A stretch of DNA of 25,969 nt from a virus (Duplodnaviria > Heunggongvirae > Uroviricota > Caudoviricetes), in the IMG/VR virus record IMGVR_UViG_2585427776_000011. The stretch is one strand, 5' to 3'. This document shows, piece after piece, positions 1,449-22,079 of this stretch. Numbering within the stretch: position 1 is the first letter of the stretch; each line of letters opens with the position of its first letter. A program made the position numbers and the translations under genes. Below the pieces are notes generated by a model, which was given only the letters and a program-made list of their open reading frames with translations, made no database searches and had not been told where the DNA came from.

Positions 1449-1925
1449 GGTGTCCTCATGAGTGAGGGAACCAAAAAGAAAACCCGCAGTTTTTACGCTG
1501 CGGGTTTGTTGTTCATGTCTGTGAGATAGGGTGCCTTATCGACCTTACCCTGGCAACCGATTGACGGGGGATTGCTCCCCCGTCGCGGTTTCCTTACTGC
1601 TTACACTGTAAGAACGCCGCAAACTCCGCTCCCCAGAAGCTCATCCGTATTTCACACAGCGAACCGTGCAGCATCCAGATTATGAGGATTACCGTCACGC
1701 AGAACGTGATGGCCGTAAGCGATTTTTGCGACATAGCGCTTGCTCCTTTGTTGGAGAGGCGCTAACCTATCACTTGCTTAAGGTAGATATGTTAGGGCCT
1801 CGGTTAAACAGAGATGTTTTCCGGGGCCTTTCCACATCCGGCCTTCGGGTATTCCCTCCGACCATCAGCCGAAAGGCACCCGCGCGTAATCTATCGCTTT
1901 TTTGTTACTCCGGCAATTCTGCCTG

Positions 1926-2186
1926 TTAATTCTGAGATAAAGGCAAACTCATCTGATTGTTTCCCCTGTGTGAAGCTGGCAACTCATGCCACGGGATACC
2001 TTCTGAAGAGTGAACGCCGGGGGCGTGTTTCGATGTGAATTTATGGAAAGCTTCCAGTGTTGAGAAACTTATGCCGCATTCCAGGTTGTTACACTGGTAA
2101 TATTTTTTCCGTACGGTGTTTGAATCATTTTCCGAACGACTGGTGCGGATACGGGCAGATGCGCCACAAAGCGGACAACGGAACAT
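1926..2186 (-). CDS. ogr: Ogr/Delta-family zinc-finger late transcription activator
   Basis: N-terminus MFRCPLCG...YYQCNNLEC matches the C-x2-C...C-x4-C zinc finger of P2 Ogr; strong RBS GGGAGG upstream of ATG at 2186; C-terminal tail differs from P2 Ogr as I remember it. Confidence 0.8.
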   Translation of the reverse strand: MFRCPLCGASARIRTSRSENDSNTVRKKYYQCNNLECGISFSTLEAFHKFTSKHAPGVHSSEGIPWHELPASHRGNNQMSLPLSQN

Positions 2187-2228
2187 AGCGACCTCCCTTA
2201 ACGTGGTGCTGCCGCTATTCTAAGTTGC

Positions 2229-3338
2229 TCACTCTGTTTCTGCTATCCATTCCGGGATTTTTGCTTCAAGCTCAAGCTGCGTGGTAAAGCCGCTGTTATC
2301 AATGGTGTGCTCGGCTTTTGCAATAATCCAGTCCTGATTGTCGATGTCACTTTTGAAGCCTGTCACCGTGCCATGCATTTCGGGGTAGAGTTCTGCGCGT
2401 CCACGAGCCAGTGTGATGGAGAATGATGCGGCTCCGCGTTGTAGTTGCTGCCACTTTGCCGCCGCTGCGCGTCTTGCTGCCTGCTCGTTCTGATAAGTCT
2501 TGCGTAACACAAACACATTGCCTTCCGCGCCTTCCATATAATCACCTTCACGGCTGCTGCTTTTCTCCTTTTTGGGTTTTGGCGGTTTACGGCGTTTCAC
2601 GCTGACTTTTTTCTTTTTCCCGTAATTAAGATCAAGCCAGTAGGCGCGTACCCCCGTATACGCCTCGCGGTCAGCAATACGGAACTGATGGCGATCGCCG
2701 CTGCTGCGTGTAATGGCGAACGAGGGCAACGGCTGGCCCTGTGCGTTCACGCCACCACCTGGCATGATGAATAACAGATTGCCGCTTTTTACCGTGGTGA
2801 TTGCGCCCAGCATTTCCGCCATGCGCGTAAGAAAGGACATGTCGCTTTCTTCGGTCTGGTCGGCGTGGTCGATTTCGATATCCATCAGCATTTCGCTGAT
2901 TTGCGGTTTCAGACCGTACCGATGAGCGATGGCGGATACCACACGCTCAACGGTCACATCATGCCAGGACACCTCACGTTTAACGTTAAATTCATCCCGA
3001 AAATCTGCGCTTCTGGCTGAAACAGTCAGCCTGTCCGGCGGTCCTTCGTGAGCGATTTCATCAACAATGTAAGTGCCTTTTTCTGTCAGCGGTTCCCCTT
3101 TCCAGCCAATGAGAACCGTCAGACGCGCGCCCCGTGGCGGTAGCTGCAACTGGCCATCGGCATCATCCAGCGTGATGGTGAGCTGGTCCGCCTCAAATCC
3201 CCGGTTGTCGGTCAGCGACAGGCTCATCAGGCGCTCTGCCACGCCGGACAGCGTTTTACCCTCCGCGAGAATATCAAAATCCGGCATTTTCACGGGGTCT
3301 GTGCCCTGACTGAGCAATTGCATGGTGGTGTCGGTCAT
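2229..3338 (-). CDS. D: P2 gpD-like tail protein (late control gene D)
   Basis: Translation from internal start MTDTTMQLLSQGTDPVKMPDFDILAEGK... is gpD-like; start chosen at ATG 3338 with RBS GGGAGGGAACAG, not the longer 413-aa ORF from 3470. Confidence 0.9.
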   Translation of the reverse strand: MTDTTMQLLSQGTDPVKMPDFDILAEGKTLSGVAERLMSLSLTDNRGFEADQLTITLDDADGQLQLPPRGARLTVLIGWKGEPLTEKGTYIVDEIAHEGPPDRLTVSARSADFRDEFNVKREVSWHDVTVERVVSAIAHRYGLKPQISEMLMDIEIDHADQTEESDMSFLTRMAEMLGAITTVKSGNLLFIMPGGGVNAQGQPLPSFAITRSSGDRHQFRIADREAYTGVRAYWLDLNYGKKKKVSVKRRKPPKPKKEKSSSREGDYMEGAEGNVFVLRKTYQNEQAARRAAAAKWQQLQRGAASFSITLARGRAELYPEMHGTVTGFKSDIDNQDWIIAKAEHTIDNSGFTTQLELEAKIPEWIAETE

Positions 3339-3495
3339 CTGTTCCCTCCCTGTGCGGCATGGTCGCATGTGCGTGCGGAGTGGGTTACTGCTTTTTGTTG
3401 TCGCCGTGGCGGGAGAATAGCGCAGGGGTGAGATTACGCGCGTGGTGGGTGATGATTGTTGCTGAATCATTTAACGGATACAAGGGGCTGAAGCT

Positions 3496-4680
3496 ATGAG
3501 TGAAACTCGTTTTCATGGTGCCCGTGTTACGGAAAGTACCGACCTGGTAACAGCGATTAATGATGTTGATTCCAGTGTTATCGGTATCGTGGCAACGGCG
3601 GATGATGCGGATGCGGAGCTGTTCCCGCTGAACAAGCCCACACTGCTGACCCGCGTCAATGACGTGCTGGGAAAATGCGGAACAACGGGGACGCTTTATC
3701 GTGCGCTTAAGGCCATCGCAGACCAGGTGAGCACAAAGGTGATCGTCGTTCGCGTGGCTGAACACAAAGAAGAAGACGGAAAAACGCAGGATCAACTGGT
3801 TATCGGTGGTTCTGAATCTGACGGCAGCTATACGGGGATGTATGCGCTGCTTGTTGCAGAGCAGGATGAAAGCATCGGATACCGTCCGCGTATTCTGGCC
3901 GCGCCGGAGCTGGACACGGAGGCGGTAACAAAATCCCTGTGCGTGATTGCAGGTAAACTGCGCGCGTTTGTGTATGCCTCATGTCACGGCTGTAACACGA
4001 TGGCTGAGGCGATTACCTACCGCCAGAAATTCAACGAACGTGAGGTGATGCTCTTATGGCCGGACTTCATCGCCTACAACCCGAAAAGTGGCAAAAACGA
4101 AACGTTCCCCGCGCCTGCCTATGCGTGCGGCCTTCGTGCGTACATTGACCATGAGCAGGGCTGGCACAAATCGCTGTCCAACGTTCCGGTTAAAAATGTG
4201 CTGGGGATGTCTAGGCATGTGTTCTGGTCGTTGCAGGCCGAAGACAGTGATGCCAACAGCCTCAACAACAAAGAAATCACGACCATTATTCGTCGCAACG
4301 GGTTCCGCTTCTGGGGCAACCGCACACCGGAAACGAACGCCTACATCTTTGAGGTGTATACCCGAACCGCACAGGTGCTGGCTGATTCAATTGCGGAAGC
4401 GCAGTTTGAAACCATCGACAGTCCACTGACGCCTGCGAACGTGAAAGATGTTATCAGTGCCATCAGGGCAAAACTGGATTCACTGGTTACTGCCGGGAAA
4501 CTGATTGGGGCGTCGTGCTGGTATGACGTGGTGGATAACGGCACCACGAATTTACGTCAGGGGCGCGTGCGTATTCGCTACAAATATACGCCTGTTCCCC
4601 CGCTGGAAGACATGGAGCTTTACCAGTCGTTTACTGATGAATTCTTTGGTCCCGCATTTGCGGTGCTGGGAGGTGCCTGA
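3496..4680 (+). CDS. FI: P2 gpFI-like contractile tail sheath protein
   Basis: 394-aa ORF, recognised as tail sheath (FI) family; stop overlaps FII start (ATGA). Confidence 0.93.
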   Translation: MSETRFHGARVTESTDLVTAINDVDSSVIGIVATADDADAELFPLNKPTLLTRVNDVLGKCGTTGTLYRALKAIADQVSTKVIVVRVAEHKEEDGKTQDQLVIGGSESDGSYTGMYALLVAEQDESIGYRPRILAAPELDTEAVTKSLCVIAGKLRAFVYASCHGCNTMAEAITYRQKFNEREVMLLWPDFIAYNPKSGKNETFPAPAYACGLRAYIDHEQGWHKSLSNVPVKNVLGMSRHVFWSLQAEDSDANSLNNKEITTIIRRNGFRFWGNRTPETNAYIFEVYTRTAQVLADSIAEAQFETIDSPLTPANVKDVISAIRAKLDSLVTAGKLIGASCWYDVVDNGTTNLRQGRVRIRYKYTPVPPLEDMELYQSFTDEFFGPAFAVLGGA

Positions 4681-5192
4681 TGGCTGTACCAAAACATCTT
4701 CGCTTTTTTACGCTGTTTGTGGATGGTGAAAACGAAGTGGGTAAGGTGACGTCCGTCACTCTGCCTAAGCTGACGCGCAAAACCGACAGCTACCGGGGTG
4801 GTGGCATGATGGGTGCGGTAAGTATTGATCTCGGTCTGGACGACTCCGCGCTTGATGCGAGCTTTGTCATGGGGGGCGCAGTTCGTGAGCTGTTCCTTAA
4901 GTATGGCGGCACGATTGACGGCACGCTGCTGCGTTTTGCGGGTGAATACTACACCGATGCAGAAAGCGACCTGTATGAAGTCGAAATGCGCGGACGTGTG
5001 ACGGAAATTGATATGGGGGAAGCCAAACAGGGCGAAGCCACATCACACACTTACGCCATTAAAAACACCTACTACAAGCTGAGTGTTAACGATCGCCCGT
5101 TGTGGGAGATTGACCTGCTGAACTTCATTTACCGGAAGGACGGCAAGGACATTGTGCCCGATCGCATCCGTTCCGCGCTCGGGCTTGGCTGA
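4680..5192 (+). CDS. FII: P2 gpFII-like tail tube protein
   Basis: 170-aa ORF immediately after sheath gene; tail tube family by sequence and synteny. Confidence 0.9.
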   Translation: MAVPKHLRFFTLFVDGENEVGKVTSVTLPKLTRKTDSYRGGGMMGAVSIDLGLDDSALDASFVMGGAVRELFLKYGGTIDGTLLRFAGEYYTDAESDLYEVEMRGRVTEIDMGEAKQGEATSHTYAIKNTYYKLSVNDRPLWEIDLLNFIYRKDGKDIVPDRIRSALGLG

Positions 5193-5247
5193 TAAGTAAT
5201 ATGCAGGCGGCGCAGTGCGTCGCCTCTGACTGAAAAGGAGACAACTG

Positions 5248-5622
5248 ATGAAAGACATCGATACTGAAACCCGGAATAACACCGTGGCGGATGATGTGAC
5301 GGCAGGTGAGGATATGGCTGTCGAACGTGGCGTAAAACTGACCCGACCAATTGAGCGTGGTGGCGAAAAAATCACGTATGTGGAGATCACCGGGGCTATT
5401 GAACAGGCTGGATCCCTGCGTGGTCTGTCGCTGTCTGATGTGCTGAATCTGAAAGCGGATACCATGTTCACGCTGTTGCCTCGCGTGACCTCGCCACGAC
5501 TGGATGAAGTGATGATTAAAAAAATGTCGTCACGCGATTTTATTCAGTTGTGCGCTGTGGCTGTAAATTTTATGAGCGAGCCAGACTCTGGCGCGAAGAG
5601 CGTGCAGGAGACGGCAGCGTAA
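5248..5622 (+). CDS. E: P2 gpE-like tail assembly chaperone
   Basis: 124-aa ORF between tube and tape-measure genes, the conserved position of gpE. Confidence 0.85.
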   Translation: MKDIDTETRNNTVADDVTAGEDMAVERGVKLTRPIERGGEKITYVEITGAIEQAGSLRGLSLSDVLNLKADTMFTLLPRVTSPRLDEVMIKKMSSRDFIQLCAVAVNFMSEPDSGAKSVQETAA

Positions 5623-5786
5623 TCACCCTGGTGTGCTTTGAGCACATCGAAGATCTGGTGGCAGATATCGCCGCCATTTTTAACTGGTCGCCCGCCGAAA
5701 TCTTCATGATGACGCCCGGCGAAGTGGTTAGCTGGCGTGAGCGGGCGGCACTTCGCAGCGGGAATGCAGACAATGAAGACTCTTGA
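5248..5786 (+). CDS. gpE+E' tail assembly chaperone extension made by programmed -1 frameshift
   Basis: The -1 frame is open from 5520 to the stop at 5784-5786 and overlaps the end of E; candidate slippery runs are A7 at 5518-5524 and AAATTTT at 5565-5571. Exact shift site not determined. Confidence 0.6.
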
Positions 5787-8580
5787 CATCCGGGTCGCTT
5801 TCAGCGCCGTTGACAGGCTGACCCGGCCTGCCGAAAACGCCCGCCGCCTGATGGGGCAGTTTGGTGACTCCATCCAGCGAACGCAGGGGGCGATCAAAAA
5901 TCTCGAGCGTCAGGCGCGTTCATTTGAGCGCGCCCGTGACGCTGTCGGTAAAGCGGATGCTGGCATATTGAAAGCACGACGCCAGCTTAACGCCCTTAAT
6001 CAGTTACAACGCACGGGTACAGTGCTCAGCGAAAAACAACAAAAGCTGATGCAGCAGTTAAGCACCCGGCTTGAACGCCTGAATGAATCGCGCACACGGG
6101 AAATTCAGAAAATGCGGGAGCTTGGCGGAGAGCTGAAACGCCACGGCATTTCCCTGACAGGCAGCGATAACACCATCCAGCAGGCCATCAGACGCACCGA
6201 ACAGTACAACAACCAGCTTGAACGCGAACGGCAGGCGCTTGCGCGTGTAACACGTGCGCGTGAGCGGTATTCGCGCGCGCAGGAAACCGCGGGAAAACTG
6301 AAAACAGGTGGTGCGCTGGCAATTGGTGCGGCAGCGGCTGGCAGCTATGCTGCCGGGCGTTTTTTGCAGCCTGCGATCGGGTTCGGGAAAGAGATGTCCC
6401 GCGTTCAGGCACTGACGCGAATCGACCAGAACAGCCCGCAGTTTAAGGCGCTGCGTGAACAGGCGTTAAAACTTGGCTCTGAAACGCAGTTCACTGCAGG
6501 CGATGCCGCCAGTGGGCAGGCATTTCTTGCAATGGCAGGCTTCACACCGCAGGCCATTCAGGCTGCGCTTCCCGGAGTGCTGAGCATGGCAACGGCTGGC
6601 GGTATGGATCTCGGCGAGACGGCAGATATTGGCTCAAATATCCTGACGCAGTTCGGCCTTTCTGCTGACCAGATGGACCGGGTCGGTGACACACTCACCG
6701 CAGCGTTTACCCGTACCAACACTGACCTTCGCGCACTGGGCGAAACCATGAAATATGCAGGTCCGGTGGCGGGTAAGCTGGGAATATCGCTGGAGCAGGC
6801 CGCAGCGATGGCTGGCGTGCTGGCGAATATGGGCATCAGAGGGAGTGATGCCGGGACGGCAATGCGTGCCAGCCTGGCTCGTCTGGCATCACCGCCAAAG
6901 GCGGCGGCAGAAGCTCTGAAAGAGCTGGGCGTGTCCGTCTCGGATGCCGGGGGTAAAATGCGCCCGATGGAGGATGTGCTGGCCGACCTTTATAAAGCCA
7001 CCCGCAAATACGGGGAAGTTGACCGGGTATCGTTCTTTAAGGACATTGCCGGAGAAGAGGCTTTCACATCGTTTATGGCGCTCGTTGATGCAGTGGGTGA
7101 CGGTTCCTTACCCAAACTGAGAAAAGAACTTGAAGGCGCGCGCGGTGAGGCTGAACGCACAGCAAAGGTTATGGCCAACAACCTTGACGGCGATCTGAAA
7201 TCACTCGGCAGTGCATGGGAAGGGTTGCGCATCCGCATTGCAGATCTGATTGACGGTCCGCTGCGTTCTGTCACGCAGTGGCTCACGCGGGTGGTATCAA
7301 GGGTGACGGCGCTGGCGCAGGCCCATCCGGCACTGACGCGCCAGCTACTGATAGCAGGCGGTGCGTTGCTGGCAATGACTGCAACGGTTGGCTCGTTGTC
7401 GCTGGCTATTGGTATGCTTGCTGGTCCGCTGGCAAAACTGCGTCTTGGTTTTTCTCTCCTGACCGGATCAATGAATGCTGTCAGGGTCCTGCCAGCACTA
7501 TGGGGAATGGTGACGGGTTCCGTTTCTTTACTGGGAGGCGCTATCGGGGCGCTGTTCAGTCCGGTTAGTCTTATCGTGGCTGCACTTGCCGGAGCTGCCG
7601 TTCTTATCTGGAAATACTGGGATCCCATCAGGGCATTTTTTGCCGGGGTGTTCAGCGGGATTATGGAAAGGCTGGCCCCGTTGCGCGAAACCTTTGAACG
7701 GTTTGGTCCTGTTTTTGACGCAATCGGAAGCGGGATCAGCCAGGTGTTTAACTGGTTTAAATCGCTGCTGTCACCGATGGAGTCCAGCAAGGAAACGCTG
7801 GAAAAATGTACCAGTGCTGGCGAGATATTCGGTAACGTTCTTGGCGGTGCGTTACAACTTGTTCTGACGCCTGCAAAAATGCTACTGGATACGCTGGCGT
7901 GGATACTTGAAAAACTTGGCGTCCTTCCGGATGAAGCGGAAAGGGCGCGCAAGAAAATCGAAGACGCACAGCGTGCGGCCATTCTTCAGGACAAGGTTGC
8001 CTTGCTTCAGGGGGACCTGGCGAAAATCAATCCGCCGAAGCCTGTGGAAAATGGCAATGGCACCGGAGGTGATAAACCCAAAGACAACAAACCGCTCACA
8101 GACAGCAATACCGGTACGCTACGCAGACTCAGCAAAATTGCTGATAACACAGGTAAGCTGGTTGATGAGACGAAAAAACGCATTGGCCCCGGCGATATTG
8201 TCTTTAAGAACCTGCCCCGCGCACTTGCTGTTCGTGGGGAGTGGCAGGAGCGGAAGATTGCGCAGGTCAGTAAGCCTGCTTCCGCAATCAACATCACACC
8301 CGTGGTCCCGACTCCTCTGCCTCCGGCGCTGGTCCCTGTTGTTGCGGCCAGCTCCCGCCCGGTGGCGGAGGCCATACGATCGCCAGTGGCATCAGTTCCT
8401 GCAACTTCCCGTAACCGGGAGCCTGTTGTCTCCGGATTTGGCGGTGAAATTCATGTTCATCTGCATAACGTTGTTACGCAGAATCCCCGCGAACTGGCGA
8501 AACTGGTCGGTGAAATGGTCAGGGCAGAATTGGAACGACGCGACCGTGCCGGACGTGGCAGTTTTTACGATAAAGATTGA
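5764..8580 (+). CDS. T: P2 gpT-like tail tape measure protein
   Basis: Long ORF (947 aa from 5737) with coiled-coil N-terminus and Gly/Ala-rich hydrophobic middle typical of tape measure; start placed at ATG 5764 (alternative 5773). Confidence 0.9.
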   Translation: MQTMKTLDIRVAFSAVDRLTRPAENARRLMGQFGDSIQRTQGAIKNLERQARSFERARDAVGKADAGILKARRQLNALNQLQRTGTVLSEKQQKLMQQLSTRLERLNESRTREIQKMRELGGELKRHGISLTGSDNTIQQAIRRTEQYNNQLERERQALARVTRARERYSRAQETAGKLKTGGALAIGAAAAGSYAAGRFLQPAIGFGKEMSRVQALTRIDQNSPQFKALREQALKLGSETQFTAGDAASGQAFLAMAGFTPQAIQAALPGVLSMATAGGMDLGETADIGSNILTQFGLSADQMDRVGDTLTAAFTRTNTDLRALGETMKYAGPVAGKLGISLEQAAAMAGVLANMGIRGSDAGTAMRASLARLASPPKAAAEALKELGVSVSDAGGKMRPMEDVLADLYKATRKYGEVDRVSFFKDIAGEEAFTSFMALVDAVGDGSLPKLRKELEGARGEAERTAKVMANNLDGDLKSLGSAWEGLRIRIADLIDGPLRSVTQWLTRVVSRVTALAQAHPALTRQLLIAGGALLAMTATVGSLSLAIGMLAGPLAKLRLGFSLLTGSMNAVRVLPALWGMVTGSVSLLGGAIGALFSPVSLIVAALAGAAVLIWKYWDPIRAFFAGVFSGIMERLAPLRETFERFGPVFDAIGSGISQVFNWFKSLLSPMESSKETLEKCTSAGEIFGNVLGGALQLVLTPAKMLLDTLAWILEKLGVLPDEAERARKKIEDAQRAAILQDKVALLQGDLAKINPPKPVENGNGTGGDKPKDNKPLTDSNTGTLRRLSKIADNTGKLVDETKKRIGPGDIVFKNLPRALAVRGEWQERKIAQVSKPASAINITPVVPTPLPPALVPVVAASSRPVAEAIRSPVASVPATSRNREPVVSGFGGEIHVHLHNVVTQNPRELAKLVGEMVRAELERRDRAGRGSFYDKD

Positions 8581-8586
8581 GGAGTC

Positions 8587-9081
8587 ATGGCCATGATGAT
8601 GATCTACGGCATGTTTGTTTTTGAGCTGCGCACATTGCCGCATCAGCAGTTACAGCAAAACAAAAGCTGGCGGCATGTGAAAAATGAACGCGTTAATCGT
8701 TCAGCAAGCTGGCAGTATATCGGCGCAGGTGATGATCGCATCGTGCTTTCCGGCGTGCTTTATCCTGAAATTACAGGTGGCGAAGTGTCGCTTTCGTTGC
8801 TGACCACGCAGGCATATACAGGACGCCCCTGGCCTCTGATTGATGGTGTCGGGCAGATTTACGGCATGTATGTACTGACTGAAACGAATACGACCCGTTC
8901 CGAGTTTGATCGCTACGGTAAGGCGAAAAAGATAGAATTTTCACTGACTCTTGGACGCTGTGATGAGGATTTGCGGGAGCGCCTGCAATCCTCATCGTTC
9001 AGTGATATGCTGTCCGGCTTCAAAGATAAGGTCACATCATCCCTTAACAGCGCGGCCAGCTCCGTTAAAGGGCTGTTTTGA
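8587..9081 (+). CDS. U: P2 gpU-like tail protein
   Basis: 164-aa ORF directly after T, gpU-like; start may be the second or third ATG (8593/8596) for better RBS spacing. Confidence 0.85.
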   Translation: MAMMMIYGMFVFELRTLPHQQLQQNKSWRHVKNERVNRSASWQYIGAGDDRIVLSGVLYPEITGGEVSLSLLTTQAYTGRPWPLIDGVGQIYGMYVLTETNTTRSEFDRYGKAKKIEFSLTLGRCDEDLRERLQSSSFSDMLSGFKDKVTSSLNSAASSVKGLF

Positions 9082-9088
9082 TTAACGC

Positions 9089-9120
9089 AAAACCGCTAAT
9101 GGTCAGATTAGCGGTTTTTA
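9089..9120. terminator. bidirectional intrinsic terminator between U and invertase
   Basis: Perfect inverted repeat AAAACCGCTAAT-ggtcag-ATTAGCGGTTTT with T/A runs on both sides; overlaps the 3' end of the invertase ORF. Confidence 0.6.
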
Positions 9121-9707
9121 TTTTCCTGAGTCTGCCTGGTTGTTTCTTCAGCCTGTATATCGCCTGCAGGGTGATAACGATAAATCGTCGATATGCCGAT
9201 GTCGTAAATGATCGCCAGTTGTTTCCTGTCATGACCGTTTTTAATCAGCCTCGCTATTTGCTCGTGTTGTTCTTTTGTCAACTTCGGGCGACGTCCGCCA
9301 ATGCGTCCTTGTGCGCGTGCTGCTGCCAGCCCGGCCAGTGTACGCTCTACAATTAATTCACGTTCCATTTCGGCTAAAGCCCCCATGACGTGAAAAAAGA
9401 AACGCCCCATGGGTGTTGATGTGTCAATGCTGTCCGTCAGACTACGGAAATTAACACCTTTTTCCCGCAATTCCTCAATAAGCGTGATCAGGTGTTTCAT
9501 ACTTCTGCCCAGTCTGTCCAGCTTCCAGACAACCAGCGTATCTCCTTCTGATAGCGTTCTGAGCAGTTTTTTCAATCCCGGTCTGGCTGATTTCGTTCCG
9601 CTGATTTTATCTTCAAAAATCAGTTCACATCCTGCGCAGTTCAGTGCATTGCGTTGTAAATCCGTGTTCTGGTCATTTGTTGACACACGAATATAGCCAA
9701 TTTGCAT
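9108..9707 (-). CDS. Gin/Pin/Hin-family serine DNA invertase
   Basis: Translation from MQIGYIRVSTNDQ... (resolvase catalytic serine motif) with C-terminal HTH ...LAIIYDIGISTIYRY; start at ATG 9707 with RBS AGAGGA, not the 264-aa ORF start. Confidence 0.9.
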   Translation of the reverse strand: MQIGYIRVSTNDQNTDLQRNALNCAGCELIFEDKISGTKSARPGLKKLLRTLSEGDTLVVWKLDRLGRSMKHLITLIEELREKGVNFRSLTDSIDTSTPMGRFFFHVMGALAEMERELIVERTLAGLAAARAQGRIGGRRPKLTKEQHEQIARLIKNGHDRKQLAIIYDIGISTIYRYHPAGDIQAEETTRQTQENKNR

Positions 9708-9721
9708 AAAAAACATCCTCT

Positions 9722-10207
9722 TTGTTTCGTGAAAAATACAGAGTTGGTATAGGTAGGGATAAAAACGAAAACGTTGGTTTGGGGGAAGGCTCTGCACTGC
9801 CCGTTGGTGTGCCCGTTCCGTGGTCCTCAGCAACACCACCAACGGGCTGGCTGAAATGTAACGGTGCAGCATTTTCTTCTGAAATGTATCCCAGACTGGC
9901 AAGGGCTTATCCCACCAATAAATTACCGGATTTACGCGGTGAATTTATCCGTGGCTGGGATGATGGGCGCGGGATTGATGCGGGACGTACCCTGCTTTCA
10001 GGGCAGGATGGTACAAGTTTTTCTCATTACGGAGGTAATTTCGACATTGGGTCTGGTCATTCAATCAATAACTATGACCAAATTGTTTCTAACCAACCAG
10101 GCTTTTCCCGTTTTTCATTTGCAGGGCCTTCACGAGGTGATGGGGTTAATTATGTAACCATTCGTCCTCGTAATATTGCGTTTAATTACATCGTAAGGGC
10201 AGCATGA
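9722..10207 (+). CDS. tail-fibre C-terminal cassette 1 (tail-collar-like domain), no canonical start
   Basis: ORF opens at TTG; contains GWLKCNGAAFSSEMYP...LPDLRGEFIRGWDDGRG, the pattern of phage tail-collar domains; ends NYIVRAA. Confidence 0.5.
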   Translation: MFREKYRVGIGRDKNENVGLGEGSALPVGVPVPWSSATPPTGWLKCNGAAFSSEMYPRLARAYPTNKLPDLRGEFIRGWDDGRGIDAGRTLLSGQDGTSFSHYGGNFDIGSGHSINNYDQIVSNQPGFSRFSFAGPSRGDGVNYVTIRPRNIAFNYIVRAA

Positions 10208-10217
10208 AAACGTTGGT

Positions 10218-10685
10218 TTGGGGGAAGGCTCTGCGTTGCCCGTTGGCGTGCCCGTTCCATGGCCCTCAGCCACGCTGCCAACGGGGTGGCTGAAATGTAA
10301 CGGCGCAGCATTTTCTTCTGAAATGTACCCCAATCTGGCAAAGGCCTACCCCACCAATAAATTACCGGATTTACGGGGCGAATTTATTCGCGGCTGGGAT
10401 GACGGACGGGGCGTTGATAATGGGCGCAACCTACTGTCTGCACAGTCTGACGCTATTCAGAATATAGTTGGCACTTTTGGGCGTACTCAGCTTTTTAAAG
10501 ATGCGCTTAATTCAGGACCATTTAGTCAAACTGACTCTATATTATCAGTAGGCTTACAACCAACTGAGATCATTGAAGGATATGGTGCTTCTGTATGGAC
10601 ATTCGACGCCTCTCGCTCAGTTCGCACAGCATCTGAAACACGCCCCCATAACATTGCGTTTAATTACATCGTAAGGGCAGCATGA
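10218..10685 (+). CDS. tail-fibre C-terminal cassette 2, no ATG start
   Basis: Same conserved 5' and 3' ends as cassette 1 with a different central segment; frame opens just after the previous stop. Confidence 0.5.
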   Translation: MGEGSALPVGVPVPWPSATLPTGWLKCNGAAFSSEMYPNLAKAYPTNKLPDLRGEFIRGWDDGRGVDNGRNLLSAQSDAIQNIVGTFGRTQLFKDALNSGPFSQTDSILSVGLQPTEIIEGYGASVWTFDASRSVRTASETRPHNIAFNYIVRAA

Positions 10686-10695
10686 AAACGTTGGT

Positions 10696-11202
10696 TTGGG
10701 GGAAGGCTCTGCACTGCCCGTTGGTGTACCCGTTCCGTGGCCCTTAGAAACACTGCCAACGGGATGGCTGAAATGTAACGGTGCAGCATTTTCTTCTGAA
10801 ATGTATCCCAGACTGGCAAAGGCTTATCCCACCAATAAATTACCGGATTTACGCGGTGAATTTATCCGTGGTTGGGATGACGGACGTGGTGTGGATGCGG
10901 GGAGAACAATATTATCCGCTCAAGGTGATGCCATACGTAATATCTATGGTGAGTTCAAGACTGTAAACACCGAAAATTATTCAATATGGGAATCAGTAGG
11001 CTCATTTAAGGGGGCAGTGGTGCCTTTGAGTCCCTCAACGAACAATAGTTATTTCTCCTTCACCAGAAGTATGGTGACAGAAAGAACAGACGGCACTGTT
11101 TACCCAAAAGTGATAGGCCTTGATGCTTCAAGAATTGTTCCAACTGCAAACGAAAACCGTCCTCGTAACATTGCGTTTAATTACATCGTAAGGGCAGTAT
11201 GA
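10696..11202 (+). CDS. tail-fibre C-terminal cassette 3, no ATG start
   Basis: Same architecture as cassettes 1 and 2 with a third variable centre. Confidence 0.5.
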   Translation: MGEGSALPVGVPVPWPLETLPTGWLKCNGAAFSSEMYPRLAKAYPTNKLPDLRGEFIRGWDDGRGVDAGRTILSAQGDAIRNIYGEFKTVNTENYSIWESVGSFKGAVVPLSPSTNNSYFSFTRSMVTERTDGTVYPKVIGLDASRIVPTANENRPRNIAFNYIVRAV

Positions 11203-11312
11203 AAACGTTGGTTTGGGGGAAGGCTCTGCGTTGCCCGTTGGTGTACCTGTTCCGTGGCCCTCAGCCACACCGCCAGCAGGGTGGCTGAAATGTAACGGTG
11301 CAGCATTTTCTT

Positions 11313-11531
11313 CTAAAATGTACCCAAAACTGGCAAAGGCCTAGCGGAAAACTCGCTACCGGGGAGTGGTGACAGGATGTGCTCAATATTCACACGTGCA
11401 CCATAAACGGACGGGTTATAACTGGTGGCGGCAGCTTTCAGCATGTCGCCGTTGATTTCGCGCCCGTCTGCCGTTACACCGGAGACAGCCACGCGAAACT
11501 TTTTGCGGGATGTCTTTTTTTCATTAGCCAT
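11313..11531 (-). pseudogene. truncated remnant of P2 gpO-like capsid scaffold gene (N-terminal ~60 codons only)
   Basis: MANEKKTSRKKFRVAVSGVTADGREINGDML...VYGARVNIEHI resembles the gpO N-terminus as I remember it; homology stops at about 11346 where the cassette array abuts; RBS AGAGGGG before ATG 11531; divergent from P as in P2. Confidence 0.6.
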
Positions 11532-11685: not shown

Positions 11686-13437
11686 ATGATTCAGGACGCT
11701 TTTGTGCGCCAGCGTGCGCGGCAACTTTACTGGCAGGGTTATCCGCCCGCAGAAATATCACGTCTGATGGGAATAAACCCGAACACGATTTATGCGTGGA
11801 AAAAACGCGACCAGTGGGATGAAACGCCACCCGTGCAGCGTGTCACGCAGTCCATCGATGCGCGCCTCATCCAGCTCACTGAAAAACAGAATAAAACAGG
11901 TGGTGACTTCAAGGAAATAGACCTGCTGACCCGGCAGCTTAAAAAACTGCATGATGGCCAGCCGGATGCGACGGCCACAGGAAAGAAAGGCCGGGCGAAA
12001 AAACTCAAAAATCATTTCACGCCGGAACAGATTGCCGCACTGCGGGAAAAAATCATCAGCAGGCTGGAGTGGCATCAGCGGGGCTGGTTTGACTCCCTGA
12101 CCCTTTGCAGGGAAGCCGGGATACGTAACAGGATGATCCTGAAATCCCGACAGATTGGGGCGACCTGGTATTTTGCACAGGAAGCACTGCTGATGGCGCT
12201 GCGTGACGATGTGGCGCAACCTTACCAGCGTAACCAGATTTTTTTGTCTGCGTCGCGTCGTCAGGCGTTCCAGTTTAAAAGCATTATTCAGAAGGCCGCG
12301 GCTGAAGTTGATGTGGAGCTGAAAGGGGGCGATAAAATCATCCTCTCAAACGGCGCAGAGCTGCATTTTCTCGGCACTTCTGCTGCGTCGGCACAGTCCT
12401 ATACGGGCAATTTTTATTTTGATGAATTTTTCTGGGTCAGTCGCTTTGCCGAACTGCGCAAGGTGGCTGGCGCTATGGCAACCCTCAGCGGACTGCGGCG
12501 CACCTACTTCTCCACGCCATCCACCGAAACGCACGAGGCATACGCCTACTGGAACGGCGACCGCTGGAACGAGAAAAAGGCCACGCATAAACGCCAGCGT
12601 TTTTCTGTGGACTGGAAAACGCTGCATAACGGGCTTATCTGCCCTGACCGGACGTGGCGGCAAATTGTCACGCTGGAAGATGTGGTTAAACACGGCTGGA
12701 AACACACCGATATCGACGAAATTCGTGATGAAAACACCGAAGACGAGTTCCTCAATCTCTATATGTGTGAGTTTGTCCGCGAAGGGGAATCGGCATTTAA
12801 CCTGAATATCCTGATTGGCTGCGGTGTTGACGGATACGACGACTGGAAAGACTGGAAACCTTTTGCTCCCCGCCCGATGGGGAATCGTCCGGTATGGATT
12901 GGGTATGACGCAAACGGCAGCAGTGGCAACGGGGACAGCGGCGCTGTGTCCGTGGTGGTTCCTCCGGCTGTTCCTGGTGGCCGTTTTCGAACGGTGGAGA
13001 CGCGACGCGTTCAGGGGCTGGAGTTTGAAGAACAGGCCAGAGTCATTGAAGAGTTCACGTGTCGCTACAACGTGGAACACATCGGCATTGATGTGACGGG
13101 CGGGAACGGGGAGGCTGTTTATCAGATAGTGAAGCGGTTTTTCCCTGCTGCTATTCCGTACACCTTCACGCTGTCATCCAAACGGTCGCTGGTACTGAAA
13201 ATGCTGCAAATAATGCGTGCCGGACGGTGGGAATACGATCGCGCCGAACGCGAGCTGGTCGCGGCCTTTAACGCCGTGCGTAAGGTGAAAACACCGGGTG
13301 GCTTTATCACTTACGAAACGGACCGCGCGAGGGGGATCAGCCACGGCGACCTTGCGTGGGCAACCATGCTTGCTGTCATTAACGAACCAATTGGCGGCGA
13401 AGGAGAAAACGAGCGTTTCACGGTTATGGAGTTCTGA
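11686..13437 (+). CDS. P: P2 gpP-like terminase large (ATPase) subunit
   Basis: 583-aa ORF recognised as P2-type terminase ATPase; stop overlaps Q start (ATGA). Confidence 0.93.
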   Translation: MIQDAFVRQRARQLYWQGYPPAEISRLMGINPNTIYAWKKRDQWDETPPVQRVTQSIDARLIQLTEKQNKTGGDFKEIDLLTRQLKKLHDGQPDATATGKKGRAKKLKNHFTPEQIAALREKIISRLEWHQRGWFDSLTLCREAGIRNRMILKSRQIGATWYFAQEALLMALRDDVAQPYQRNQIFLSASRRQAFQFKSIIQKAAAEVDVELKGGDKIILSNGAELHFLGTSAASAQSYTGNFYFDEFFWVSRFAELRKVAGAMATLSGLRRTYFSTPSTETHEAYAYWNGDRWNEKKATHKRQRFSVDWKTLHNGLICPDRTWRQIVTLEDVVKHGWKHTDIDEIRDENTEDEFLNLYMCEFVREGESAFNLNILIGCGVDGYDDWKDWKPFAPRPMGNRPVWIGYDANGSSGNGDSGAVSVVVPPAVPGGRFRTVETRRVQGLEFEEQARVIEEFTCRYNVEHIGIDVTGGNGEAVYQIVKRFFPAAIPYTFTLSSKRSLVLKMLQIMRAGRWEYDRAERELVAAFNAVRKVKTPGGFITYETDRARGISHGDLAWATMLAVINEPIGGEGENERFTVMEF

Positions 13438-14483
13438 TGAGCAGAAAAAATAAAAAAATGCGCATGAGTTCACGCATTGATCTCGCTGATGCGCTCAGGA
13501 AAGAATCATCGCTCAGTGCATTCACATTTGATGGTCCTTATCGCCTGACCGGGCATGACCTGCTGGACAATATGTACTGTGCTGATAACGGGCGATGGTA
13601 TGAAACCCCGGTGGACTGGTACGGTCTGGCAAGAGCCGCCCGGCAAACGTCCTGGCATCAGTCTGCGCTTTACTTTAAGCGCAATGTATTGCTCGGTTGC
13701 TACATCCCGCACCCGCTGCTTTCCCGGCAGGATTTCTCGGCGCTGGCGCTGGACTGGTTTGTGTTCGGTAACGCATTCCTTGAGCTTCGGAGCAATATGC
13801 TCGGCGAACCACTTAAATTACGGCACGCACTGGCGAAATACATGCGACGCGGAAGCGATCTTGAATCATGGTGGTATGTGCAGGATGGCAAGGACGCGTT
13901 TCAGTTTCGCCCTGGCAAAGTGTGCCACCTGATGAATCCGGACATTAACCAGGAAATTTACGGCATGCCGGAATATCTTGGCGCATTACTCTCGGCCAGC
14001 CTGTCTCATTCGGCGGACATGTTCAGAAAATTGTATTACGACAATGGATCCCACGCCGGGTGCATCATCTACATCGGTGCAGCGCAGGTAAACCGCGAAA
14101 GCATGGACTCCCTGAAAGAAACGTTACAGGGTGCGCGTGGTGGTGGTGCGTTTAAAAACGTGCTCATCCATGCGCCCAACGGGGGCAAAGAGGGGGTGCA
14201 AATTTTGCCGTTCCAGCAGATCACCGCAAAGGATGAGTTCATGAATGTTAAGGCGGCATCCCGTGATGATGTGCTGGCTGCGCACCGCGTTCCGCCGCAA
14301 CTGATGGGGGCGATGCCGGGCGAAAAAAGTGCGTTTGGTGATGTGGAGAAGGCCGCGCGGGTTTACGCAATTAACGAGCTGATGCCTGTCATGGAGGCCA
14401 TGAAGCACATCAATGACTGGCTTGGCGAAGAGGTGATCCGCTTTAACCCTTACGCACTGTTAGACACCCAGCCCACATCCTGA
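13437..14483 (+). CDS. Q: P2 gpQ-like portal protein
   Basis: 348-aa ORF following P, portal family by sequence and synteny. Confidence 0.93.
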   Translation: MSRKNKKMRMSSRIDLADALRKESSLSAFTFDGPYRLTGHDLLDNMYCADNGRWYETPVDWYGLARAARQTSWHQSALYFKRNVLLGCYIPHPLLSRQDFSALALDWFVFGNAFLELRSNMLGEPLKLRHALAKYMRRGSDLESWWYVQDGKDAFQFRPGKVCHLMNPDINQEIYGMPEYLGALLSASLSHSADMFRKLYYDNGSHAGCIIYIGAAQVNRESMDSLKETLQGARGGGAFKNVLIHAPNGGKEGVQILPFQQITAKDEFMNVKAASRDDVLAAHRVPPQLMGAMPGEKSAFGDVEKAARVYAINELMPVMEAMKHINDWLGEEVIRFNPYALLDTQPTS

Positions 14484-15013: not shown

Positions 15014-16393
15014 ATGAAAAAAATCAATAAAGAAGATTCTAAAAGAACCTTTTTACGTGGATGGTTGCGATTTCTTCGTAGCGTTGAGAGAGCTAAGAAA
15101 AAAAAGCCTGCGCAAGAGAAAAATGGTAGTCTTCGTTTTTCCGATGAAACAACTCCTGTCCAAAACCAAGTCGCTACGTTCATTGAAAATATATCGATTA
15201 TAAAAGAGTATGACTCATCAATTCTTCGTCGTGACGCAGAGAAGATATTAATACCTAAATATTTTGACTTATATGACAATCCAGAGAAATCTCTGCTATT
15301 TATTAGTGCAGCCACAAAATTAATTGCAAGAGGTAAATGGAAATCATATATTTTTGATTACAAGAAAAACAAAAAACACTGTCTTGGTCTTGAGTGTCTA
15401 TTAGGTGTTGCTCTTACAGCAGCAAGGCAAAGTAATATAAATTTCAAAGATACGATGATTCAGATTAATGGTATCTACCCTAAAGATGAACAGTATCTTG
15501 AAATTATCAGGGATGTCGGGCTTGTAAAAGAGATTAGTAATGCTGCACCAGGTAAAGTTCTGGACTCTACTGAAGCATCGAAAAAAGCGAATCCGAAGAA
15601 ACGAATCTTCTCTGCTGATAGTATCGGAAAGGAGAATGCTTCTGCCTTTGCCCATGACAGAAAAAATGTCACTGCTGAAAAATTTACCGCATACATAAAC
15701 GAATGCTTAAATGATCATAATTTAAAACTTGTACATGAGGCAGAAAAGCATTTAACTTCCTGCATGGGGGAACTCCTTGATAATGCGGAGCGGCATTGTG
15801 GGTTAGAGCAACGCCCACGCTGGTATTTGAGAGGTTTTGTTAATAATAACGTACGAAACCCCATATGTGAGTTGGCTGTTTTCAATTTTGGGAAAACTAT
15901 CAGCGAAACTTTTGATAATTTACCTGAGGATCATTTTTCATTAAGTCAACAAGTTAATCCATACATAAATAAGCATATTAAGAAAAAGGGTATGTTTAAG
16001 GAAGGATTAACAACAGTAGCGGCCTTGCAAGGGCGGGTGAGTTGTAAAAACGAGAAAGAAACTGACAGTTCTGGCACCGGAACAATTGAATTATTGAAGT
16101 TATTTCAAGATATGCATGATAATCTTAAAAAAATGGGAAGAGATATTAAAGGTGGGATAAAAATGACTTTAATATCTGGTAGTACTCATATTAACTTTGA
16201 TGGATCATATAAATTAAAGCAAAGGTTGGTTAATGACGAGGAAAGTGACATTTTTACTTACCCTTTTAATGATGTAGGGCTTGAATCTGAACCGGATCGC
16301 AACTATCTTAAGCGTATGAAGGATGCTCGATTTCCTGGAGTTATGATCAATATTCGTTTTCCTCTACCAGAAAACGCCACCCAGCGAACTTGA
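15014..16393 (+). CDS. hypothetical protein with GHKL-type ATPase / anti-sigma-factor serine-kinase-like motif (accessory operon gene 1)
   Basis: ATG 15014 with AGGA RBS; 459 aa, AT-rich codon usage; motif GELLDNAERHCG resembles the N-box (E..NA..H.G) of SpoIIAB/RsbW-type kinases and SSGTGTIELL a G2-like box. Function is inferred, not verified. Confidence 0.75.
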   Translation: MKKINKEDSKRTFLRGWLRFLRSVERAKKKKPAQEKNGSLRFSDETTPVQNQVATFIENISIIKEYDSSILRRDAEKILIPKYFDLYDNPEKSLLFISAATKLIARGKWKSYIFDYKKNKKHCLGLECLLGVALTAARQSNINFKDTMIQINGIYPKDEQYLEIIRDVGLVKEISNAAPGKVLDSTEASKKANPKKRIFSADSIGKENASAFAHDRKNVTAEKFTAYINECLNDHNLKLVHEAEKHLTSCMGELLDNAERHCGLEQRPRWYLRGFVNNNVRNPICELAVFNFGKTISETFDNLPEDHFSLSQQVNPYINKHIKKKGMFKEGLTTVAALQGRVSCKNEKETDSSGTGTIELLKLFQDMHDNLKKMGRDIKGGIKMTLISGSTHINFDGSYKLKQRLVNDEESDIFTYPFNDVGLESEPDRNYLKRMKDARFPGVMINIRFPLPENATQRT

Positions 16394-16403
16394 GGACAGG
16401 TAC

Positions 16404-16748
16404 ATGAAAATGGCTGACATCACCATAGATTTCAATAAGTTAGTAAAAGATAGTAACAAGAAACTTTTTGCTGGACGTTCTAATGGGCGCCAGGCCTATG
16501 ATTACTTTAATATAGGGAAATTTTGCACAACCAGTAATGATAGATTATATCTATTGATCCCCAAGGGAATTGTTGTATCAAGCTCATACTTTCTAGGTAT
16601 GCTTGAAACGGTTTTGCCGAAATTTTCTTCGCCTAGCGAATTTTATAGTCGCACTGTACTTGATGGTCGTGAATATAAAGAAGGTATGCTTTCTGAATTA
16701 GATAGAGCTGTAAGGAGAGGCTTACATAAAAATGTTCCCTTCTTTTAA
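16404..16748 (+). CDS. hypothetical small protein, STAS-like / DUF4325-like (accessory operon gene 2)
   Basis: 114 aa, RBS GAGGA; segment IVVSSSYFLGMLE resembles the serine-containing core of STAS-like domains recalled from memory; sits next to the kinase-like gene. Confidence 0.7.
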   Translation: MKMADITIDFNKLVKDSNKKLFAGRSNGRQAYDYFNIGKFCTTSNDRLYLLIPKGIVVSSSYFLGMLETVLPKFSSPSEFYSRTVLDGREYKEGMLSELDRAVRRGLHKNVPFF

Positions 16749-17541
16749 AAATATTTTTCAAATCAAAATGACAGCGCTGTCTGTCATTTTTTTTATATTC
16801 CCCGCAGCTTGCTCTGTGACAGATTTTTCCAATAAAGAAAACATTGAATGTAATGAGTCACTTTATCCAAACACGCCTTTTTATATTCCCGATTCAGGAC
16901 TTAGTGGTATATCATCACCGTTTTTGTTATCCGGAAACCCGAATGATGGCTTGATGTTTTGTGAAAAGGCAAACGACACCTTTCATAAGTTATCTCTGGC
17001 AAGGGATAACAAAAAAGATTTATTTGCTAATTATTTCAAAGATGTTCCAAATTCCTATGATATATATAATATTGTAAAGGTTCCGGAAAATGGTCCAGAG
17101 TGGATTTCTATTGGCATCTCTTTATTTGCTTTAGTTTCATCCTTTGTTATTCCTTGTGTTCAACATAGAAAAGAACGTAAAGAAGCTATTAATGAAGGGT
17201 ATTGGGTAAGAGAAGTAATTATGCCTAAAATTAATGGGTTGGCATTCGATGTTGTGCAAAGTTTTAAAAACTCCATGGCATTATCAGAAGAGGAGTTTCT
17301 TAGTGTATTCAGTAATACTCTTTTACCAAAACTAGGAGAGTTACGGGATTCATTATATTTGTTTAATAGTTTTCCAGAATTAAATGCAGATATTGAAAAT
17401 CTAGAAAGTATTTGTGACTCCTTGGAGGAAGAAGTTTCCAATCATATAGACTCGCCTAATGAAATAAGAATTTCTGATATATCAATGTTTCATTCCAAAT
17501 TAATACAGAAATTAATTTTACTTCATAAGAAGATAGGTTGA
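16732..17541 (+). CDS. hypothetical membrane protein (accessory operon gene 3)
   Basis: 269 aa; N-terminal hydrophobic signal-like segment MTALSVIFFIFPAAC (lipobox-like Cys) and an internal hydrophobic helix WISIGISLFALVSSFVIPCV; overlaps the end of gene 2. Confidence 0.7.
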   Translation: MFPSFKNIFQIKMTALSVIFFIFPAACSVTDFSNKENIECNESLYPNTPFYIPDSGLSGISSPFLLSGNPNDGLMFCEKANDTFHKLSLARDNKKDLFANYFKDVPNSYDIYNIVKVPENGPEWISIGISLFALVSSFVIPCVQHRKERKEAINEGYWVREVIMPKINGLAFDVVQSFKNSMALSEEEFLSVFSNTLLPKLGELRDSLYLFNSFPELNADIENLESICDSLEEEVSNHIDSPNEIRISDISMFHSKLIQKLILLHKKIG

Positions 17542-20319: not shown

Positions 20320-20325
20320 AGTGAT

Positions 20326-20691
20326 TTACTTCGTCATACCATTCAGGGTGTCGCGGTAGACTGTAGCCAGCCGCTGAATTTCCAGCACGGTGTCTTCTGT
20401 GTCGGCATGGCGATGTGTGATGCGGATGCTGTCGGCAATCACATCGACGATTGCAGAGGATGGGCGCTGGTAAATGCCAATAACGGACGGGGTGCCACCT
20501 TCAATGCGGTAAAGCCTGTAATTTCCCTCGTGGCTGTCAATCATGTAGCGACCATCAATAACAATCTTTCCGTCAGCGAGCTGCGGTACAGGCAGGGATT
20601 TCTGGTACATGTCATAACGATCACGCACGCGAGCGGCAAGATCACGTTCTGTGTTGAGCAGGTATTCAAGAAAGTCGTTGGCGAGAATCAT
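20326..20691 (-). CDS. hypothetical phage protein immediately upstream of A
   Basis: 121-aa ORF with RBS AGAGG; stop 4 nt before the A start. Confidence 0.65.
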   Translation of the reverse strand: MILANDFLEYLLNTERDLAARVRDRYDMYQKSLPVPQLADGKIVIDGRYMIDSHEGNYRLYRIEGGTPSVIGIYQRPSSAIVDVIADSIRITHRHADTEDTVLEIQRLATVYRDTLNGMTK

Positions 20692-20763
20692 TGCGGCAAT
20701 CCTCTTGTTACAGATGTGCGAAGGCCTCCCGCCGCAAGGTGCAGGAAAGGCCCGGAACAGGAA

Positions 20764-20994
20764 TTAATGGAGTTTGTTTTGCTGCTGGATGAGCTGTTGA
20801 AGCTCGTGCAGATCATCCGCCAGATAGCTGAAAACAGAGGCGGAATAAATGTTTGATAGTGCGTGGCTGCGCTCATGCAGCATATTGATGTGCATGATTT
20901 GCGCGACGCGTGATGCGCGGGAAAGTCTGCGGTTGATTTCAGTCTGGATGTGACGACGCTCCGCGATAGCGCGGTGTGGTTTGCGGTTTGCCAT
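20764..20994 (-). CDS. hypothetical phage protein
   Basis: 76-aa ORF with RBS AAGGGG 7 nt before ATG 20994. Confidence 0.6.
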   Translation of the reverse strand: MANRKPHRAIAERRHIQTEINRRLSRASRVAQIMHINMLHERSHALSNIYSASVFSYLADDLHELQQLIQQQNKLH

Positions 20995-21171
20995 GGTGTG
21001 GCCCCTTGTGTAGTAAGTTGTGAAAACTCACCATCCAGAGCTGCGAAACTGTGGGTGGCGAGACGTACGAGGTTCGCAGTACCGGCTACACAAGAACCCG
21101 GCCCGACCGAAGTCGGCCCCGTACGCCCCGCCATAATTCTGACGCGAAAAAAACGTGGCAATACAGTACGC

Positions 21172-21196
21172 ACAAAAAAACCGCTGGCGCGGTTGT
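21172..21196 (-). terminator. intrinsic terminator on minus strand inside the early operon
   Basis: On the minus strand AACCGC-gcca-GCGGTT is followed by TTTTTTTGTG. Confidence 0.5.
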
Positions 21197-21316
21197 GCGC
21201 TTGTGTAGTCAGCAGGCTGCGAAACCCGACACCCGTTTTGTGAGGTGCAGCGGAAATGTAACCTGACTGATTGCGGCATGGCAAGCGGTTTTTTTGTGTG
21301 TGCATGTTCTGGTTTC

Positions 21317-21879: not shown

Positions 21880-22079
21880 CTGCGTGGCTCCTGTACCTGT
21901 CGGATAAGATTCACCCGCGCCACGTTGGTGGCGCAGAAGTAAGTGCCGTCAGTGAGGTAGATGTGGTGTGCATCCTTTTCCGAACGGTGTTTGTCGATTG
22001 TGGTAATCAGGCGTTCGTCGACTTCGTATTCACGCCCTCTGGAGGTAAAACGAACGACAGGAAAATGCTTAATTGCCAT
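21876..22079 (-). CDS. hypothetical phage protein
   Basis: 67-aa ORF with RBS AAGGAGG upstream of ATG 22079. Confidence 0.55.
   Translation of the reverse strand: MAIKHFPVVRFTSRGREYEVDERLITTIDKHRSEKDAHHIYLTDGTYFCATNVARVNLIRQVQEPRR

Follow-up and report, generated by a model that had tools for sequence, protein, structure and literature searches.

The closest described relatives of the element analysed here are P88 and other Xuanwuvirus phages (P884B11, Citrobacter phage phiSM, PhiR44_2, 520873 and Chuche), in which hok, ogr and D are followed by FI-U, an invertase gene, fibre cassettes and the genes through to O, and onward by P and Q, a cargo hotspot, A and finally cox, C and int. In the P88 annotation D is on the minus strand, sheath to U on the plus strand, the invertase on the minus strand ahead of the fibre cassettes, H to O on the minus strand, and P and Q on the plus strand. 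Plaques or lysogens are formed by both P88 (PMC5285337) and phiSM (PMC6456863). Gene order is discussed neither in the P88 paper nor in a 2026 paper on P2-like diversity. In P2 (Peduovirus), by contrast, FI-FII-E-T-U-D-ogr are annotated as co-oriented genes of a single F operon, and there is no invertase. Further points of comparison are Min of p15B, Cin of P1, Gin of Mu and Pin of e14, systems in which a serine invertase lies beside promoterless cassettes for tail-fibre C-termini, each preceded by an AAAC..GGTTT-type crossover site.

The window, a stretch of 25,969 nucleotides, holds a prophage of this already known P88 type (Peduoviridae, Xuanwuvirus type), located at serS in E. coli. With high confidence, we interpret the whole region as a P88-like prophage in native gene order that has undergone a single, illegitimate internal deletion of ~10-11 kb. 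It shares order and orientation with the Xuanwuvirus phages at 94-96% nucleotide identity in the common parts, which for P88, P884B11 and phiSM cover ~69% of the window's first 25 kb. A serS prophage of E. coli WS1933D matches both arms (96.5% and 98-99.7%), and 316 of 5,426 complete E. coli genomes share the serS-hok-ogr junction. The hok/mokW-type toxin gene at the ogr-proximal prophage end (1597..1734, minus strand) encodes a product 100% identical over 46 aa to the MokW-like protein of P88; relatives in E. coli carry the annotation Hok/Gef. The window differs from P88 in lacking the ~10-11 kb from the tail-fibre assembly gene through O codon 64, in having a multi-cassette array where P88 has a two-state segment, in carrying different cargo between Q and A, with no ParM/ParR, and in its cox, C and int alleles (28-50% amino acid identity). 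The late-gene and other families ogr, D, FI, FII, E/E', T, U, O, P, Q, A and int are common to the window and P2, but DNA similarity to P2 is too low for a megablast join. The window does not contain a complete virion gene set (capsid, scaffold, small terminase, baseplate, fibre and lysis genes), and represents a defective derivative rather than a viable member of the P88 type.

An earlier note on this DNA had described a P2-like prophage in which FI-U is inverted relative to D and ogr. The gene identities and strands that it assigned are borne out by Pfam and by tblastn with P88 proteins. On the minus strand lie ogr, a late-gene activator with an Ogr/Delta zinc finger (1926..2186; PF04606, E=1e-15), and the full-length, 369-codon tail/baseplate hub gene D (2229..3338; PF05954), to which P88 gpD residues 1-366 are 98.9% identical by tblastn. 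Across a native 157-bp gap (3339..3495), of the length and position originally claimed, the plus strand carries FI (sheath, 3496-4680), FII (tube, 4680-5192), the chaperone genes E (5248-5622) and E' (ending at 5786), T (tape measure, 5773-8580) and U (8587-9081), a block identified by Pfam hits. All proteins of this block (3496..9081) are full-length and 97-100% identical to those of P88 by tblastn, with the exception of E (75%). A terminator scan located a hairpin with a 12-bp stem and T runs (9089..9118) where U and the invertase gene converge; it falls within the block collinear with P88, and is probably a bidirectional terminator that closes the FI-U operon.

It is true that the P2 late genes share one orientation, and the FI-U block is indeed inverted compared with P2 itself, since the window departs from P2-type late-gene architecture in having D and ogr on the strand opposite FI-U. 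P2 is, however, the wrong comparator for a P88-like lineage, and a P2-type prophage that recently inverted FI-U against D/ogr and also suffered a deletion is an extremely improbable account of this locus. Window positions 1473-9701 form a single collinear HSP with P88 627-8832 (94%, 8,243 bp), in the order ogr(-) D(-), FI-FII-E-T-U(+), invertase(-), fibre segment. The D-FI junction is unbroken in 13 phage records at 94-99.5% identity, and in more distant Peduoviridae it matches as two pieces on the same strand; the same order is also annotated in Novemvirus phiT5282H, Reipivirus ST16-OXA48phi5.4 and Serratia phage KSP20, and thus spans at least three Peduoviridae genera (Xuanwuvirus, Novemvirus and Reipivirus). 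None of the 25 longest inverted-repeat pairs in 3250-9800 links the supposed breakpoints (3339-3495 and 9082-9107), the D-FI gap contains a box that is conserved across genera, and the FI-U operon appears to have its own terminator. Because intact phages, P88 and phiSM among them, have this same order natively, the inversion claim is refuted, and judged from these sequence comparisons P88-like phages natively have D/ogr diverging from FI-U, with no rearrangement. That the P88-type records are themselves misoriented assemblies is very unlikely, as they are independent and come from four host genera.

The conserved box, TTTTTGTTGTCGCCGT (3392-3407), lies ~100 nt upstream of the FI ATG and is shared with P88 and Novemvirus phiT5282H. 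In sequence it is close to the TGTTGT/GTTGTG cores of the annotated pF, pO/pP and pV activator sites of P2, in which FI is preceded by a TGTTGT-type box at a comparable spacing, suggesting a promoter role. An exact P2-style TGT-N12-ACA dyad is absent from the gap, the window having only four matches to it, fewer than expected by chance. A relaxed search (TGT-N12-A[CG]A) gave a single match per late intergenic region along with many in other places, and for that reason we rely solely on the cross-genus conserved box. Matches in a sigma-70 promoter scan of 1300-11700 were fewer than in shuffled sequence, with none in the D-FI gap.

What the earlier note had called a cassette array can now be specified as an invertase gene at 9108-9701 (minus strand) followed by three complete cassettes and one truncated cassette at 9722-11343 (plus strand). 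The invertase is intact and of the Hin/Gin/Cin type (PF00239, E=3e-51; PF02796, E=6e-13), with the resolvase catalytic domain and HTH_7 of a serine recombinase and an N-terminal YIRVSTNDQ motif; by tblastn it shares 82.6% identity with its P88 counterpart over residues 3-195, and it is collinear with E. coli EC10 at 98.3%. The complete, promoterless cassettes (9722-10207, 10218-10685 and 10696-11202) carry the collar domain PF07484 and match the C-terminal part of the tail collar fibre phrog_523 (profile positions 481-638 of 673). The fourth (11213..11343) is truncated after ~43 codons in the open reading frame listing, and homology to the cassettes of the relative L002 stops at 11343. Four identical 27-bp crossover-site repeats, AAACGTTGGTTTGGGGGAAGGCTCTGC, start at 9769, 10208, 10686 and 11203 (9769..11229), all in direct orientation. 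A pattern search of both strands allowing up to three mismatches found these four matches, all on the plus strand, against zero expected by chance; with no site on the minus strand at that threshold, the array lacks a pair of inverted sites. Nor does a constant 5' fibre gene read into the segment: H is absent by tblastn, and all cassettes point away from where it would lie. In three relatives (L002, L003 and L005) the same cassette arrays adjoin an intact H gene. The arrangement of invertase, promoterless cassettes and preceding sites is thus that of the Min, Cin, Gin and Pin systems, from which the window differs in that its sites are all direct repeats and the constant 5' fibre part is deleted, so that no switching is possible. 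Having lost every inverted partner site as well as its target gene, the invertase would leave the cassette array frozen.

The deletion is real, private to this prophage, and can be bracketed at 10.3-10.9 kb relative to L005, WS1933D and P88. It removed O codons 64-278, N, M, L, X, Y, K, lysB/C, R, S, V, W, J, I, H and the tail-fibre assembly gene(s). The loss that had been noted as 'N through H/G' stands, but its extent was underestimated, the true set running from O(64-278) to the tail-fibre assembly gene(s). In tblastn searches, none of the P88 proteins encoded from the tail-fibre genes up to and including N matched the window, and O matched by residues 1-63 only, while all other shared P88 proteins matched over their full length. 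The O fragment of ~60 codons reported to abut the cassette array is there: a scaffold gene remnant on the minus strand (11531-11343; 62-63 codons of 278, P88 gpO residues 1-63; PF05929, profile 2-55 of 268) directly adjoins the truncated tail-fibre cassette. Read directly from the bases, the junction lies at 11342..11343 within a silent cassette, with a 2-bp 'TA' microhomology: intact cassettes read ...GGCCTA/CCCCACC and intact O reads ...CGCCCATA/GCGGAAAAC (slashes mark the junction), while the window reads GGCCTAGCGGAAAAC across it. From 11342 onward, nucleotide identity with many intact E. coli prophages is 100%. The cassette-O junction itself was found in none of the 5,426 complete E. coli genomes and is absent from GTDB species representatives.

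We propose that one illegitimate, non-homologous deletion joined a point ~130 bp into a silent cassette to O codon ~63, and in doing so would have taken out everything beyond that point in the invertible segment, the tail-fibre assembly gene and H, the genes for baseplate and lysis along with R and S, and X, L, M, N and the bulk of O. A similar loss is described in CRPr20 of C. rodentium, a phiSM-like remnant that by the published description retains its ends, lacks its centre and has one deletion end at the invertase/fibre region (PMC6456863); this was an independent event in another species, and its reported partners are an invertase ORF and a 'recombinase' ORF rather than a cassette and O. 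Invertases of the Hin family are strongly biased against deleting DNA between direct sites. That background weighs against the idea that the resident invertase made the deletion by recombining a cassette site with a pseudo-site in O, even though the enzyme gene and four crossover sites directly adjoin the deletion and CRPr20 lost its centre from the invertase gene (PMC6456863). The nearest 27-bp site has its centre 134 bp away from the junction and neither parental sequence resembles the site core (AAACG-TT-GGTTT), and we reject this mechanism as having almost no chance of being correct. Somewhat less remote, though still improbable, is an assembly artefact, with a contig wrongly joined in the repetitive, invertible cassette region of a prophage that is really intact: the left breakpoint falls within a ~200-bp repeat family with four copies here, invertible segments are heterogeneous within populations, and the public WS1933D record shows what is plainly an end-overlap duplication running through the corresponding region. 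However, O has no homology to the cassettes, so repeat collapse cannot make the join, the overlap at the join is only 2 bp, and both flanks are otherwise clean and continuous. The illegitimate deletion looks recent, given that surviving genes are all full-length and 94-100% identical to counterparts in functional phages and that the junction is absent from 5,426 genomes; the full-length survivors and recent loss described in the earlier note are supported in this sense.

To the right of the junction, window positions 11344-14936 form a second HSP with P88 (21322-24914) that includes the full-length large terminase and portal genes P and Q (11686..14483, plus strand, by Pfam), whose products are 98.3% and 99.7% identical to those of P88. 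The gpQ-gpA hotspot, a location described previously (PMC9122126), holds an unannotated three-gene cassette (15014..17541, plus strand; 459, 114 and 269 aa) of low GC content (33-41%). The same cassette is carried by 21 of 5,426 E. coli genomes, and its proteins have no match in Pfam, PADLOC or NCBIfam, nor has the cargo protein a significant one among PDB sequences. The replication/early region and lysogeny module (17587..25969) are 98-99.7% identical to the WS1933D serS prophage at the nucleotide level and comprise full-length A (17587-20319, minus strand), early genes, cox (23940-24461, minus strand), C (24512-24907, plus strand) and full-length int (24962-25969, plus strand), as determined by searches with PF05840, PF00589 and PF24624 and by tblastn against P88. 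Previously noted as intact, int, C, A, P, Q and the sheath, tube and tape-measure genes are confirmed as such by Pfam and tblastn, with C and cox representing divergent immunity alleles.

From its gene content the element is expected to be unable to build heads, baseplates or fibres or to lyse the cell, which supports the view that it cannot make virions and is defective through deletion. An R-type tailocin is not indicated, as baseplate, fibre and lysis genes are absent while terminase P and portal Q are present. Intact lysogeny and replication modules, ogr, hok and hotspot cargo may permit persistence as a cryptic prophage. It is conceivable, though we consider it very unlikely, that the element is excised, replicated and packaged by an intact P88/P2-like helper resident in the same cell, and that its orphan invertase flips fibre segments of other prophages in trans. 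P2-family cos sites lie in the Q-proximal non-coding region. That region is retained here in collinearity with P88, and together with the retained int, cox, C, A plus the origin region, ogr, P and Q it might allow helper-dependent spread; the P2 cos 19-mer had no match in the window with up to four mismatches, and cos was not located. If true, the element would be a ~24-kb helper-dependent hitchhiker with hok and the hotspot cassette as its cargo.

The deletion would represent textbook prophage decay at an early stage, in which one illegitimate event with no other lesions orphaned the invertase and froze the cassette array; the case raises no new questions. The main significance is instead a correction: divergence of D from FI-U is, on the comparisons made here, a lineage trait of P88-like Peduoviridae, and comparisons made only with P2 will therefore repeatedly raise false 'inversion' flags.

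The window opens with serS (1-1293; identified with Pfam and 99.3% identical to E. coli), and everything beyond it is a single P2-family prophage, whose genes were identified with Pfam, PHROGs and tblastn searches with all annotated proteins of P88, a plaque-forming Escherichia phage. A hok/mokW-type toxin gene (1597-1734, minus strand), 100% identical in P88 and possibly a stabilising module for a cryptic element, lies at the prophage end between serS and ogr. The minus-strand genes ogr (1926-2186) and D (2229-3338) are followed by a 157-bp gap and then, on the plus strand, by FI (3496-4680), FII (4680-5192), E/E' (5248-5786), T (5773-8580) and U (8587-9081). A serine invertase (9108-9701, minus), three complete and one truncated tail-fibre C-terminal cassettes (9722-11343, plus) and a remnant of 62-63 codons of the scaffold gene O (11531-11343, minus) precede P (11686-13437, plus), Q (13437-14483, plus), a low-GC cargo cassette, A (17587-20319, minus), the early genes and finally cox, C and int, which end at 25969. 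Given these identifications, the genes and strands read in the earlier note are correct, coordinates included.

That note had interpreted the FI-U block as inverted relative to D and ogr. It described P2 accurately (FI-FII-E-T-U-D-ogr are all co-oriented there, unlike in the window), but P2 is the wrong comparator for a P88-type element. The closest phages in a megablast search of phage records are P88-type (genus Xuanwuvirus), 94-96% identical with all pieces on the same strand, and direct BLAST aligns 1473-9701 with P88 627-8832 as one unbroken 8,243-bp HSP spanning ogr, D, the gap, FI-U and the invertase. In the annotation of P88, D and the sheath-to-U genes occupy opposite strands, and a convergent invertase, the fibre segment, H through O, and P and Q come after them. 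A 1.1-kb probe centred on the D/FI gap aligns without a break to 13 phage records (94-99.5% identity) and, in more distant phages, as two pieces on the same strand (about 67-70%); the order ogr(-) D(-), FI..U(+) is also annotated in Enterobacter phage phiT5282H (Novemvirus), Klebsiella phage ST16-OXA48phi5.4 (Reipivirus) and Serratia phage KSP20. P88 has been reported to be inducible and to form plaques (PMC5285337), and phiSM to be released spontaneously and to lysogenise K-12 (PMC6456863), so phages with this order do make virions. None of the 25 longest inverted-repeat pairs in 3250-9800 connects the two supposed breakpoints. The 'inverted' order is native.

With a conserved box in the gap and a strong hairpin terminator (9089-9118) directly after U, the arrangement also looks functional as it stands. 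The box, TTTTTGTTGTCGCCGT (3392-3407, some 100 nt ahead of the FI start codon), is kept between Xuanwuvirus and Novemvirus (phiT5282H) while the remainder of the gap has diverged, and it has a GTTGT core in common with the P2 pF activator site, which lies about 93 nt ahead of the start codon of P2 FI. A TTTTGTTGT core, similar to the cores of the Ogr-dependent activator sites annotated in P2, is common to the D/FI gap (3392-3416) and the O/P gap (11597-11621) and extends at both to a TGT-N12-AGA match. Judged from sequence, both likely serve P88-type phages as late-promoter elements.

The other half of the earlier interpretation, a prophage made defective by deletion, was borne out. By direct BLAST, 1.64 kb of cassettes stand where P88 has 8832-21322 (12.5 kb), which leaves the window about 10.9 kb short of P88 on balance; measured against E. 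coli Res13-Lact-PEB08-01 the loss comes to about 10.3 kb, and against the serS-integrated prophage of E. coli WS1933D to about 10.7 kb. Searched with P88 proteins (tblastn), the window has no match to the tail-fibre assembly proteins, H, I, J, W, V, S, R, lysB, K, Y, X, L, M or N, and only residues 1-63 of O align. From base 11342 onwards, the O flank is identical (100%) to many intact E. coli prophages; the cassette flank is homologous to intact cassettes as far as 11343. The parental sequences, GGCCTA/CCCCACC in intact cassettes and CGCCCATA/GCGGAAAAC in intact O, meet in the window as GGCCTAGCGGAAAAC with a 2-bp 'TA' overlap, as is characteristic of illegitimate end-joining or replication slippage. 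We rejected the invertase as the agent, because the centre of its nearest crossover site (the 27-mer AAACGTTGGTTTGGGGGAAGGCTCTGC at 11203) lies 134 bp from the junction. The deletion is real. For CRPr20, a phiSM-like remnant in Citrobacter rodentium, a comparable central deletion starting at the invertase gene has been described (PMC6456863); the literature already includes P88-type prophages that are defective in this way.

The surviving genes common with P88 align at full length without frameshift. Both arms match the WS1933D serS prophage (96.5% and 98-99.7%), which makes them parts of a single lineage at a single site and not a chimera of two prophages. In the public 'complete' record of WS1933D (NZ_CP035836.1), the FI-to-J region is apparently duplicated between the two ends of the record; the invertible fibre segment differs in state between them, and several copies are frameshifted. 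An end-overlap or circularisation artefact of that assembly is the probable cause. Of 5,426 complete E. coli genomes, 316 have the serS-hok-ogr junction and none has the cassette/O junction, which is also absent from the GTDB representative genomes. This supports a recent, private event; that the junction is itself an assembly error is less likely.

Two further differences from P88 are ordinary mosaicism: 14936-17628 carries the cargo cassette instead of ParM/ParR partition genes (P88 24914-27152), and a 1.1-kb segment with a lipoprotein/SPFH-type gene (P88 30837-31925) is absent at 21298/21299. The cassette (15014-17541, plus) lies between Q and A, a P2-family anti-phage hotspot (PMC9122126), and encodes proteins of 459, 114 and 269 aa at 33-41% GC, with no match in Pfam, PADLOC or NCBIfam. 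It recurs in 21 of 5,426 E. coli genomes, and in other genomes too it is accompanied by a shorter A (910 aa here and 915 in WS1933D, vs 940 in P88). Homologues of the 459-aa protein form 55 clusters, none of them named, from Enterobacterales and Aeromonas; the alignment shows a G354-T-G356-T357 motif and, within ELLDNAERH, invariant E253, N257 and H261. In a Foldseek search the AlphaFold model of this protein (pLDDT 80.6, pTM 0.82) gave weak hits to the ATP-binding domains of SpoIIAB and CheA-P4 (E=0.02-0.1, probabilities reaching 0.98, target-normalised TM-score about 0.6), suggesting a GHKL-type ATPase or kinase. From its hotspot location, the cassette is a candidate uncharacterised defence system.

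E. coli EC10 shares the invertase and cassettes (98.3% identity over 9000-10900), and relatives with them carry more cassettes and a tail-fibre assembly gene in opposite orientation, running into an intact H. In the window H is absent and the invertase intact. The four perfectly identical 27-bp crossover sites (9769-9795, 10208-10234, 10686-10712 and 11203-11229) are all direct repeats, with none found on the other strand, leaving the enzyme nothing to invert: the array is an orphaned, frozen multi-cassette tail-fibre switch. The prophage as a whole is of a known phage type, keeps the gene order native to it and carries a single, ordinary deletion.
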